Below are positions 45,701-47,513 of a stretch of 64,000 nucleotides of DNA, piece by piece. The first letter of the stretch is position 1. The number at the start of each line of letters is the position of its first letter. Source of the stretch: Botryllus schlosseri (Eukaryota). Both the position numbers and the translations under genes were made by a program. The stretch lies in NCBI GenBank assembly GCA_051294905.1, contig CM119371.1:5892001-5956000 (forward strand), given 5' to 3'. The notes below the pieces were generated by a model. That model did not search any database, was not told where the DNA came from, and saw only the letters and a list, made by a program, of their open reading frames with translations.

Positions 45701-46305
45701 ATATATCGCCTCATATCAGTAATGAGACAGAAGTGTGCATTTTCTAAATGTAAGTACACAGGTTTCGCTTCAAATGTACTACGACGTAGTGCGACAGCTT
45801 TACCCTCAGTCTTGGTGTACACGAAGATGGCGACATTAAACAAATCCTCGATATCATTCAACATGTCGAGAGTTACACCGGATTCTACATTGATACCATA
45901 TACCGAAGTGAATTGTTGGGCCATTGCTTTTGTATCTTTCCCTAGTGAGTGACCAATACAGCGAAAAGCACACAGATTATCATTGTACAGATGTCGATTT
46001 TTTCGACGTAGCATTGTCAAGATGCATTTCGATTGCGCAAGCCATGTCGGGAGTTTAATACCACCACAACCAATCAACAAACCGGCATCTGGGTATACAT
46101 ATACCTGCGGGTTGATCAGACAGACCGATTGTGTATCATGGAAAACATCCGACCACTTGTTCGAATATCGAATATTATACACTTGTCTATCGTTCACTAC
46201 ATACGATTTCGCTGGTTGCCAGTTCTGAGATGTAATTTGTTGCTTTTGGTTGTCGATCTCTGACAGCACATTCTCATCCTCGTGATTCCAGAGGTGTCGA
46301 CTCAT
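42712..46305 (-). CDS. Protein-primed family B DNA polymerase (pPolB); probable start MSRHLWN at 46305
   Basis: Exonuclease motifs AFDIES, FNGGRYD and KGHFPYEF; polymerase motifs DSNSLY, KLAGNSSYG and MDTDSL. N-terminal OTU-like and C2H2-like segments; internal Vsr-like insert. Uninterrupted ~1197 codons. Confidence 0.97.
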   Translation of the reverse strand: MSRHLWNHEDENVLSEIDNQKQQITSQNWQPAKSYVVNDRQVYNIRYSNKWSDVFHDTQSVCLINPQVYVYPDAGLLIGCGGIKLPTWLAQSKCILTMLRRKNRHLYNDNLCAFRCIGHSLGKDTKAMAQQFTSVYGINVESGVTLDMLNDIEDLFNVAIFVYTKTEGKAVALRRSTFEAKPVYLHLENAHFCLITDMRRYMESYRCDVCQRFFNLQYELTRHKCATGPVEVFPGGVYSPPLNIFEKLDLEGVFVPHQLRYFKYRIAFDIESMFEKCDIPDSSKTSWECKHIPISVSISSNVEGFLEPHVIVSNGDPNDLCAEMVDHFHDIQSESFRLLQMEYQHYLDMLETKITEMKAIDPSERKIPLERLQEEFMRYLKQIPVLSFNGGRYDLNCLKEYLMGLLVDENLSVLKRGNNFLSLTTNRLKFLDIVNYLAPGFSYDAYLKAFKCSAAKGHFPYEFLTSLEKLEYTSLPSHSDFYSSLKGRNISTAEYENCLKVWNDNKMTTLRDYLKWYNAIDTHYFIEGLEKQFQSFKSQFSVDIFKEAVSLPGVVSRHLFNSIPRDFTLFNDKHQDLVSLFRDNLVGGPSVIFHRYQKQGETRIKEFFYKENAQITQHVTGLDSNSLYLFALSEPSPTGFPIHWQPLDAECTKFKPVKTAPKWGETAAQWLNWYSYTHNVHVHHAFNGPEIHVGARNYPVDGFYRNSAGQGVILSFLGCHFHAHQCRFGCDDLERRERTKRVHDYYKSLNYQVICKWECDWRTEKQENPDIVRYLNGIQPQLTRTKSVTAQKLMEMVMTGTFFGCLSVDIFTPKHLQRKFVELCPIFKNTMVSREHLSGHMKQFAIDRKLLPKPTRMLVASYWGKKILLTSDLIKWYVEHGLIISKIHEAIEFTKKTCFDNFAKNVSDCRRAGDRDPSLEIIALTQKLAGNSSYGRVLMNPRKFKRTSYCDKSELGANVKDRFFVKHDELHADLFEITKRLKTIKWGNCIQVGFWVYNNAKLKMLSFFYDCLCKYFRDECFMLLMMDTDSLYLSHSASFDDILIPEKRDEFYLNYENWFPRYFCDEHRTEFLTNPVSFDRSRQCCKDTYAYYLRQPGLMKVEYEGGTSFCGLQSKNYFCDGPKKKLASKGLQKSNQVDFETFLSVLTSKEATGGVNKGFQCRDGGVYTYKQQRKTLSYFYAKRRVLQDGVSTLPLNV

Positions 46306-46684
46306 CTGTAAAATTGATAACACGCGGTTAAATTCAGCGCTTGTGGGAACATTAAACTAGTCTTACTTACAATCTATTTTCTTTGTCGTCGTCTTCCTTG
46401 ACTCTTTATGCTTAATAAAACCAGCAACATATTAAACTACGCACGCTAACGTCGTGTTATAGCAGATAACTTACCAGTAAACTCGTGTATTCAACTCAAA
46501 CCTCGAGTTCGCTCCGTCTGTTCAACAACAAACAAAAAAATCATTACATCTCACTCGCTAGTTCTGAACAGTAATAACTCACCTCTGCAATTCTTTGTTT
46601 AAATTTCGATGTTTGTTTTGTCTGTAGGATAAACAAATAACAAATTATATTCATAAATTAAAGTACTCGTACCGAATAACTTAC
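46306..46684 (-). other. Predicted four-intron micro-exon leader of pPolB (introns 46306-46370, 46411-46474, 46518-46582, 46622-46684)
   Basis: GTAAGT/GTGAGT donors and pyrimidine-rich AG acceptors define 63-65-nt introns. The last acceptor abuts the ATG. Confidence 0.7.
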
Positions 46685-47024
46685 TCATTAAACCCTTAAT
46701 CATGCGCCAATGTAATCTCTATATGTAAACTATTTAAATCTAATGACATAACTGACTTGAGATAGCGTTATCCACCTGGAAAACAAATGATACATTAACA
46801 AACAATGCAAAAATCATATCAAACAAACAAAATGTACAAATAAATCCCAATAACACCACACACAATACATACAAGTACATCTCAATAGAATTCAATGACA
46901 GGATTATTTTCTTGGGTCACTATGAAAATGATTGAGATCATGAAAAGACACATCGGTGTCGTAGTTTTTTTTTCGACGTATAAATAAATGATTGTGCAAG
47001 TCCTGGCTGTATTTCGATATCAGC

Positions 47025-47513
47025 TCAACCAATCAACAAACCATCAGTGGGGTATACGTAAAACTGTACATTAGCCAGACAGACCGCCCGGTATTTTGTA
47101 TCTGGTCGAGAGTCTTGTAACACATCTAGTGTCGTTTCCAATCTTATAGATTCAACAAATTCGTCGAATTCAGCTAGTGATGTAATCCCCACTGGGACTT
47201 CTAATACGCTATCGATGTTCGCCGATGCATGAAAATACCGAAATCTCCCAGCGGGGATGTTATGTAAAATGATTCCATACGCGAAATTCACTTTGAAACG
47301 GGTCGACTCTGAGAAAAATATCGCTTGGATATCGCGGAAAACGTCGGGTAGCTCACGATCGATGACTCGGATATTATACACGCGCCGACTCTGATTCACT
47401 ACATATGATTTTATCGCTTGCCAGTTCTGGGATACAACTTCTTGGTATTGGTCGCCTGTCTCTGGCGGTGTGTCTTCTTCCTCGCGAATGCGATTTCTCC
47501 GTCGTCGACTCAT
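47025..47513 (-). CDS. Stand-alone paralogue of the pPolB N-terminal (putative terminal protein) domain, 162 aa from MSRRRRN
   Basis: SQNWQAIKSYVVN...VYNIR...DVFRDIQ and VCLANVQFYVYPTDGLLIG align with the pPolB N-terminus. It has 79 extra internal residues and stops right after LLIG. Confidence 0.75.
   Translation of the reverse strand: MSRRRRNRIREEEDTPPETGDQYQEVVSQNWQAIKSYVVNQSRRVYNIRVIDRELPDVFRDIQAIFFSESTRFKVNFAYGIILHNIPAGRFRYFHASANIDSVLEVPVGITSLAEFDEFVESIRLETTLDVLQDSRPDTKYRAVCLANVQFYVYPTDGLLIG

Follow-up and report, generated by a model that had tools for sequence, protein, structure and literature searches.

In a 64,000-nt stretch of the Botryllus schlosseri genome (NCBI GenBank assembly GCA_051294905.1, contig CM119371.1, positions 5,892,001 to 5,956,000; hereafter the window, with coordinates counted from its first nucleotide), we identified a Polinton/Maverick element that carries the N-terminus of its DNA polymerase, pPolB, twice in tandem on the minus strand. 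The upstream copy (unit 1) contains a stand-alone open reading frame (ORF) for the terminal protein (TP) domain, also called D1, and the downstream copy (unit 2) is pPolB itself, which lacks the core of that domain. We give roughly even odds (probability about 0.5) to the reading that unit 1 is a stand-alone TP gene, formed by tandem duplication of the whole of pPolB and complementary losses in the two copies, and that its protein serves a D1-less polymerase in trans as a feature of the lineage. The background on which an initial annotation of this DNA had relied is in print: a TP region and an OTU-like protease in Polinton pPolB, and a separate TP in adenovirus and PRD1 (PMC11071308, sections 7 and 9).

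The stand-alone ORF and the shortened polymerase

The TP ORF (47025-47513, minus strand) encodes 162 amino acids from its ATG and ends in ...GLLIG, directly followed by a TGA stop codon (47025-47027). Its similarity to pPolB covers the first 82 residues of the polymerase and falls into two blocks (34 of 71 residues identical, E 2e-14; 17 of 33 identical, E 5e-06), and the repeat finder recovered both blocks in the DNA, at spacings of 1202 and 959 nt (repeats D10 and D9, respectively). The tandem arrangement and the open frame with this end had both been described in the initial annotation, and both were seen again here.

Using an exhaustive profile search, we retrieved 562 relatives of the TP ORF at E<=1e-3, including 93 at E<=1e-10. 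One full-length match is P0004 (1281 aa; E 7.8e-28), with ORF residues 5-160 aligned to P0004 residues 3-159; the matches also include other uninterrupted pPolBs, 1281-1394 aa long, covered over their N-terminal ~160 residues (P0009, P0035, P0067, P0104 and others). A word-based search had found no longer fused relatives among 282 candidates; the exhaustive search later recovered them. Pfam returned nothing meaningful for the TP ORF or the pPolB N-terminus at E values up to 10, and no OTU family; a search of the ESM Atlas gave no usable match, and a scan of IMG/VR with the TP ORF found no relative.

AlphaFold2 (AF2), given an alignment of 103 relatives, modelled the TP ORF with a pLDDT of 91.5 and a pTM of 0.85, placing strands at residues 37-40, 44-49, 71-85, 90-94 and 141-160 and helices at residues 55-68 and 113-135. 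The resulting order, strand-strand-helix-strand-strand-helix-strand, agrees with the published D1/TP topology, which is a four-stranded sheet (with an extra strand in some members) and two helices arranged as b1-a1-b2-b3-a2-b4 (PMC11071308, section 7). According to the same source, the linking Ser, Thr or Tyr is placed in the loop between a2 and b4, with Pro or Gly close by. In the TP ORF, helix 2 and the last strand are connected by the loop R136-P-D-T139-K-Y141 (RPDTKY). A motif of this form, RP[DN][TS] or in a broader notation RP[DNSTH][TS], is present in 121 of 158 members of the family. The priming residue is expected to lie within this loop.

A structure search of BFVD with the TP ORF model returned an adintovirus protein as the best match (E 1.7e-4), followed by PolBs of MELD viruses and bidnavirus-like PolBs. 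Among the top 16 matches by Z score, little-finger domains of Y-family polymerases (Pol kappa, iota, eta, Rev1 and PolIV) recur at weak values of 4.2-4.7, a range common by chance. The modelling proposed with the initial annotation thus gave a confident D1 topology, and the structural matches, to Y-family little-finger domains, an adintovirus protein and viral PolBs, are weak yet thematically consistent. By sequence and model, the TP ORF is a complete D1/TP domain, and it has a basic N-terminus (SRRRRNR).

The TGA codon occupies the Cys position of a boundary motif, (I/L/V)G-C, that 10 of 12 retrieved full-length homologues share, and the ORF ends within one residue of the conserved boundary between D1 and the OTU-like protease domain (vOTU, or D2). 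OTU-type viral proteases cleave after L-x-G-(small residue); given this preference, the scissile bond of a fused protein would fall no more than one residue from the TP ORF stop.

The polymerase of unit 2 (42712-46305, minus strand, ATG at 46305) is an uninterrupted ORF of 1197 aa, identified by its match to Pfam PF03175 (DNA_pol_B_2) and 41% identical to P0004 across 1160 aligned columns. Relative to the TP ORF, it lacks 79 residues in frame (TP ORF residues 64-142) between ...DVFHDTQ and (S)VCLINPQ; the alignment agrees here with the loss that the initial annotation had described. Together with two single-codon gaps, the 79 residues make up the 81 codons by which the spacings of 1202 and 959 nt differ. 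The TP ORF and the pPolB N-terminus differ by four indels, each a whole number of codons, whereas three of the four indels between the two leaders described below (6, 7, 5 and 2 nt) are not. GCG triplets flank the 79-codon loss (46124 region; 47320/47085), as judged from the intact paralogue and not from the true ancestor, and they fit a deletion by slippage or microhomology.

What remains of D1 in pPolB is a stub of residues 1-82 (46060-46305, minus strand), which keeps the first strands and the last strand, with the deletion junction near 46124. The 79-residue gap removes strands 2 and 3, helix 2 and the RPDTKY loop, together with the greater part of helix 1. The stub also lacks the basic N-terminal cluster that the TP ORF, P0003 (a protein from another source, discussed below) and several homologues retain, and one conserved Ile is gone. 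When we searched for close relatives of the D1-deleted N-terminus among 408 candidates, only two proteins were found, at 36-37% identity. In an AF2 model of pPolB residues 1-240, the stub is of low confidence (blocks of 42-75, with residues 49-63 below 50), and residues ~86-205 lie in blocks of 89-98.

The confident part of that model contains the vOTU domain (45691-46050, minus strand), which we delimited from an alignment with 16 full-length homologues, the AF2 model and Foldseek. Both the catalytic Cys (DNLCAFRC) and the catalytic His (AHFCLITD) are retained and align with conserved columns of the homologues. Among the Foldseek matches listed for residues 1-240, nearly all are OTU proteases (TYMV PRO/DUB, OTUD1, MRFV), with a best E of 2e-3 and probabilities of up to 1.00. 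Judged by sequence and model, pPolB keeps the OTU fold with its catalytic Cys and His, as well as its polymerase motifs. The two copies are therefore complementary, as the initial annotation had held: the upstream ORF is a full D1 that ends at the boundary, and pPolB lacks the D1 core and keeps the vOTU and polymerase motifs.

Relics and a shared leader in the duplicated unit

Behind the TP stop, unit 1 continues as relics of the rest of the polymerase gene, and the decayed homology that the initial annotation had seen past the TGA could be followed into them. The first relic (46940-47024, minus strand) is a decayed vOTU start of about 28 codons up to the catalytic-Cys motif. It is 72% identical to pPolB across 36 nt (repeat block D9), and P0004 aligned in a single frame across the TP stop as far as 46947. 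The second relic (46715-46890, minus strand; repeats D14/D15) comprises the 3' flank of pPolB and the first ~90 nt of the next gene; it corresponds to 42520-42700, and the best blocks (including 42533-42629) are 83-86% identical. Its next-gene part (46715-46804) has as its source the first coding exon of the gene downstream of pPolB (42463-42600, minus strand; MDNNISYLK...), an exon that begins directly behind a splice acceptor. In the relic of this exon, GTG stands in place of the ATG, and there are indels of 7 nt and 3 nt. Within unit 1, the TP ORF alone is intact, and each neighbouring relic is broken by stops or frameshifts. The repeated unit is thus larger than initially annotated, since it includes leaders of ~400 nt and, in unit 1, a tail of 3' flank and next-gene start. 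Its content indicates that unit 1 is a copy of the entire pPolB transcription unit from which nearly all of the polymerase has been removed.

These relics also bear on whether the TGA is a true end. Unit 1 might once have encoded a longer protein, with the TGA read through, recoded or spliced out: the codon sits where homologues carry Cys, many homologous ORFs end at this point (as a conserved intron could also make them do), and within a single 90% cluster a member that continues into vOTU stands beside two that stop one residue past the Gly. However, no polymerase lies behind the TGA, where a second stop follows after 28 codons and in-frame deletions have accumulated; all other genes of the element are open under standard stops; and intact vertebrate Mavericks are described as intronless in the relevant part of PMC8097293. 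Because the sequence behind the TGA is collinear with pPolB coding sequence, there is no intron there, and because it is broken again, we rejected an intron or recoding at the TGA for this copy. In general terms, a TGA that is not the end of the protein seems to us very improbable.

The ~400 nt ahead of each ATG are duplicated as well, with 294 of 387 aligned nt identical (76%) and gaps of 6, 7, 5 and 2 nt. In unit 1, the leader (47514-47891, minus strand), delimited from the sequence and its conservation relative to unit 2, consists of the end of exon 1 (which ends at 47873), exon 2 (47777-47809), exon 3 (47676-47718) and exon 4 (47577-47616). Four mini-introns of 58-63 nt separate these exons from each other and from the ORF, with GTAAGT or GTGAGT donors and YAG acceptors, and the last acceptor, CAG, abuts the TP ATG. 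The unit 2 leader (46306-46712, minus strand; repeats D6, D7, D12 and D18) starts with the final ~25 nt of exon 1 and continues through the introns and exons 2-4 to the CAG before the pPolB ATG. A TATA-like box (TATAAATA, 48051-48058, minus strand), read from the sequence upstream of leader exon 1, is the sole such signal ahead of either unit and presumably acts as the promoter; unit 2 has no TATA box or exon-1 start of its own, and nothing in it matches 47892-48108.

TP, pPolB and the small gene after pPolB each begin directly behind a YYYYNCAG acceptor (third acceptor region, 42598-42608). The pattern of such an acceptor joined to an ATG occurs five times in the window, against 2.0 expected, and three of the five matches are these genes. 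We found no canonical AATAAA between TP, pPolB and the next gene. An ATG within leader exon 1 (at 48022) opens a short frame (47781-48023, minus strand) that would run for ~59 codons after the first splice and end in exon 2; Pfam gave no family match for it, and it might represent either an upstream ORF or a small protein.

No RNA run was among the sequencing runs listed as containing the sequence; RNA support came from 34 reads in ~6% of one run, which are only partly alignable and 90-99% alike. In two reads, exon 1 is joined to a stretch resembling exon 2 and on to exon 3; six have their breakpoint precisely at 47513, the acceptor before the TP ATG; and six break at 46774, no more than two bases from the acceptor of the relic's homologous next gene. 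The reads at the next-gene acceptor carry an extra upstream exon that is absent from the window. Minus-strand genes of the Polinton thus appear to be expressed via a multi-exon spliced leader, and the sharing of that leader by both units suggests one promoter combined with alternative splicing.

We propose the following course of events. As the relics show, the duplicated segment extended from inside leader exon 1 to ~90 nt into the next gene. In the upstream copy, an internal deletion then removed nearly the whole polymerase, and a stop was gained at the D1/vOTU boundary, the presumed cut site of the fused protein; in the downstream copy, 79 residues of the D1 core were lost. A single promoter near 48055 may now drive a primary transcript across both units, whose leader exons would be spliced either to the acceptor at the TP ATG or past unit 1 to the equivalent acceptors of unit 2, so that the splice choice would yield a TP mRNA and a vOTU-pPolB mRNA. 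Free TP, with its basic N-terminus and RPDTKY loop, would then give the priming hydroxyl in trans to a polymerase unable to prime on its own D1.

Spread, age and constraint of the arrangement

Unit 1 has the shape of an internal-deletion derivative, in that it preserves a 5' end, a 3' end and a fragment of the next gene. It could on this account be debris: a gutted, non-functional duplicate next to a pPolB whose 79-aa loss is an unrelated lesion, in a defective element mobilised by the polymerases of other copies, with the TP ORF still open only because it had lately belonged to a functional full-length gene or had been gene-converted from one. The host carries this family in many repeats, and numerous contigs that are 90-99% alike to the TP ORF could have been donors for such conversion. 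Degradation is also common in these elements, at 96% of the Mavericks in vertebrate genomes according to section 6 of PMC8097293. The survival of the TP ORF as the sole intact part among broken relics argues against debris, as does the separate TP gene published for a coral adintovirus genome (PMC11161782, in its account of that genome).

The tandem junction is also found beyond this copy. A contig of 335 nt from run X6 (record 10; 46636-46956, 15 differences), from another sample under the same species label, crosses the junction between the unit 1 relic and the unit 2 leader, and so does a contig of 146 nt from run X8 (record 20; 46677-46813), from a second species. P0003 (168 aa), a protein from another source, is 78% identical to the TP ORF across all 162 residues, with zero indels; it ends in ...LIG as well, and the six residues at its start equal the translation of the same intron tail. 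The initial annotation had named a duplication private to this copy as a ground for abandoning its reading; on this evidence, the tandem duplication is not private. Debris shared by another sample and a second species, together with an ORF that retains its end without an indel at 22% protein divergence, would be harder to explain. Among the variant rows listed inside the TP ORF, 4 of 5 are synonymous, which is likewise unfavourable to decay.

The boundary itself was surveyed in the 151 other proteins retrieved with the TP ORF, which are ORF calls on Logan, ENA and JGI contigs, read as proteins, so that each end may be a stop, a frameshift or an intron. The domain end is reached by 139 of the 151, and 31 of these 139 end within two residues of the boundary, whereas the three 5-residue bins that follow contain 2, 5 and 1 ends, a total of 8 across those 15 residues. 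This concentration, too, speaks against debris. Eight homologous ORFs finish exactly in (I/L/V)G. Diverged copies with a common end were also observed (P0093/P0154/P0156; P0038/P0157, versus the read-through P0158; and P0136/P0159). The boundary-ending ORFs fit a published remark that TP splits arose independently in several polinton groups (PMC11161782, PNAS 2024, in the part that treats these groups). Our scan of JGI metagenomes gave a single locus, L001 (564-2386), which is a decayed fused TP-vOTU-pPolB; its TP region is frameshifted, and the sequence crosses the boundary with neither a stop nor an intron (...DFPIGAGIF...).

As for age, the two terminal inverted repeats (TIRs) of the Polinton are 99% alike overall and the two units are 24-33% diverged, from which it follows that the element moved with the duplication already old. 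In a simulation, a neutral frame of 162 codons stayed free of stops in ~15% of trials at 10% change, under the assumption that the leader divergence (24%) dates the duplication.

Several observations weigh against a long-maintained pair of complementary genes. Between the TP ORF and the stub (79 codons), pS is 0.58, Ks is ~1.1 and Ka/Ks is 0.29. Synonymous divergence is thus far above the leader divergence, which means either that the leader is constrained or homogenised or that the coding parts come from different lineages; the excess weakens the argument from a stop-free frame, and a Ks of this size would suit the joining by recombination of two lineages that the debris account allows. P0003 is known as a protein only, so its stop and its dN/dS are inferred from protein. 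The TP ORF lacks the helical extensions of a stand-alone TP, as its residues 1-23 are irregular and the chain finishes on the last strand in the AF2 model; the TPs of PRD1 and adenovirus have N- and C-terminal helical extensions that are thought to hold the polymerase (PMC11161782, section 6). The RNA evidence is thin, because all reads derive from related copies and are not assignable to this unit. In P0078 (157 aa, another source), the TP domain is joined directly to the last ~50 residues of pPolB, an internal-deletion shape like that of unit 1, and TP-only remnants of internally deleted pPolB genes thus occur elsewhere as apparent debris.

The remaining points on this side concern the 79-aa loss. 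Contig depth over the D1-deleted segment (45999-46220) is well below that of its neighbours in all three contig runs (767 and 383 versus 1958-3029 in X1; 9 and 0 in X6; 1 and 2 in X8), and among the contigs listed, a single one crosses the deletion junction, an exact match that comes from the best holder, possibly the source sample itself. The polymerase loss could thus be young or private to this copy. On the question raised with the initial annotation, whether the TGA and the 79-aa loss are fixed, P0003 has the same end as the TP ORF, and the D1-deleted 5' end of pPolB looks rare in the reads. This rarity of the deletion junction also favours debris. Taking both sides together, we regard debris as possible but rather unlikely.

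Low depth over the deleted segment, next to a well-covered TP ORF and tandem junction, could equally mean that the losses were not reciprocal. The TP ORF would then persist as a surplus source of primer protein, or would regulate or compete with priming, in a lineage where polymerases normally retain a full D1, and the D1 deletion in this copy would be private and recent. The Ka/Ks of 0.29 is in keeping with this, as it suggests that the stub was constrained through most of its history, and so is the stub's state, its basic N-terminus and one conserved Ile having already gone. However, short contigs broken at repeats and the 90% threshold also lower the depth over a fast-evolving stub, so absence is not proven; no copy with both a TP gene and a full-D1 pPolB was seen; and a coral pPolB described in PMC11161782 starts with vOTU, which is the same complementary state. 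We judge such an extra, non-reciprocal TP gene to be improbable.

The host element and its relation to known systems

The whole Polinton/Maverick element spans 31771-50033, as defined by its TIRs, its target-site duplication (TSD) and its Pfam gene content. The TIRs (~31771-32568 and 49414-50033; ~600-800 nt) contain inverted-repeat blocks that the repeat finder gave as 96-100% complementary (I1, I2 and I5). The termini read AG...CT, and the flanks show a perfect 6-bp TSD, GCCGAG, at 31765-31770 and 50034-50039. A retroviral-type (rve) integrase with a chromodomain (39711-40781, minus strand) and a packaging ATPase (41490-42098, minus strand) were identified by Pfam, and the long TIRs, the 6-bp TSD, pPolB, the integrase and the ATPase are together those of a Polinton/Maverick. 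Pfam, applied to 11 more of the element's ORFs with a cutoff of E<=0.01, gave no match, and so none to a capsid protein or an adenain-like protease.

Within the TIRs, sub-repeats of 44-51 nt that are 61-93% identical (31829-32115 and 49688-49975; D5, D8, D16 and D17) are possible candidates for binding sites of replication or integration proteins. Outside the element, two direct repeats of ~740 nt (30084-30824 and 51939-52673) lie on either side of the Polinton, 1-2 kb beyond the TIRs; they are 99% identical, with a spacing of 21.85 kb. They could be ends, similar to long terminal repeats, of another element that hosts the Polinton insertion, or a local duplication. A second pair of direct repeats, ~350 nt long and 98-99% identical, lies to the right of the Polinton (50481-50837 and 53584-53923).

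The split-TP layout is already known from a coral element. In the hood coral polinton (Stylophora coral adintovirus), TP is a separate gene and a catalytically active vOTU is fused to pPolB (PMC11161782, section 10 and Fig. 5D legend). The complementary anatomy on which the initial annotation had based its split reading stands; the idea of such a split is not new. What the Botryllus element adds is the visible relics of the duplication, the complementary losses and the shared leader. Both halves are scarred, one by the D1 stub and the other by the vOTU stump, the 3' flank and the next-gene fragment, which makes the route readable as duplication followed by complementary loss. How a protease-released domain turns into a separate gene was left open in the part of the 2024 pPolB domain analysis that deals with it (PMC11161782), and our literature searches found no account of a polinton TP split by duplication. 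A coral polintovirus paper (PMC11131425) contains no occurrence of 'terminal protein', 'intron' or 'splic'.

The element offers a natural pair for asking whether a bare D1 primes in trans and whether vOTU is needed once TP is free. The leader acceptors that abut each ATG suggest that expression is more adenovirus-like than usually assumed. Adenoviruses have been proposed to descend from polintons with TP already detached (PMC11161782, in the part on adenovirus origin). A further interpretation, which we hold only tentatively, is that the element is a snapshot of the route from fused polymerase to adenovirus, on which proteolytic release of TP turns into a genetic split that is repeated and selected, not a single event at the adenovirus stem; the D1/vOTU boundary, where 31 of the 139 homologous ORFs end, would then be a recurrent genetic break point across polintons.

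Compared by published description only, the coral adintovirus is the closest system: it has its own TP gene and a pPolB that begins with a vOTU keeping the catalytic Cys and His, and is otherwise a polinton, whereas pPolB in Botryllus additionally carries an 82-aa D1 stub. The passages of PMC11161782 on the coral element do not mention a D1 stub, relics behind the TP gene, an origin by duplication or a spliced leader. Ordinary fused polintons (P0004 and P0009; P1-CB in that paper) share the D1 family, the boundary motif, vOTU and polymerase, but have them in one ORF of ~1280-1390 aa, whereas here D1 and the rest lie in two copies of a transcription unit.

In adenovirus, the TP gene likewise lies upstream of the polymerase gene on the same strand, and TP has its priming residue in the loop that connects helix 2 to the last strand. 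Adenovirus pTP and Pol mRNAs share leaders from one promoter, and the nuclear signal of pTP carries Pol into the nucleus; in the Botryllus element, the leader common to both units and the basic N-terminus that survives in the TP ORF alone would be the parallels. The adenovirus vOTU, however, has been inactivated and the TP there bears large helical insertions as well as extensions, whereas the Botryllus element has a vOTU with Cys and His in place and a TP of 162 aa that is a bare D1. PRD1 also has separate TP and pPolB genes, and its TP has the fold assigned to D1; unlike the Botryllus element, it is a bacterial virus that lacks both vOTU and splicing, with helical extensions on its TP. In its general form, the proposed history resembles duplication-degeneration-complementation, in which a multi-domain gene is duplicated and each copy sheds a different module. 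It differs in that the process would have taken place inside a mobile element, turning a post-translational cut into a genetic split of which both halves may be needed.

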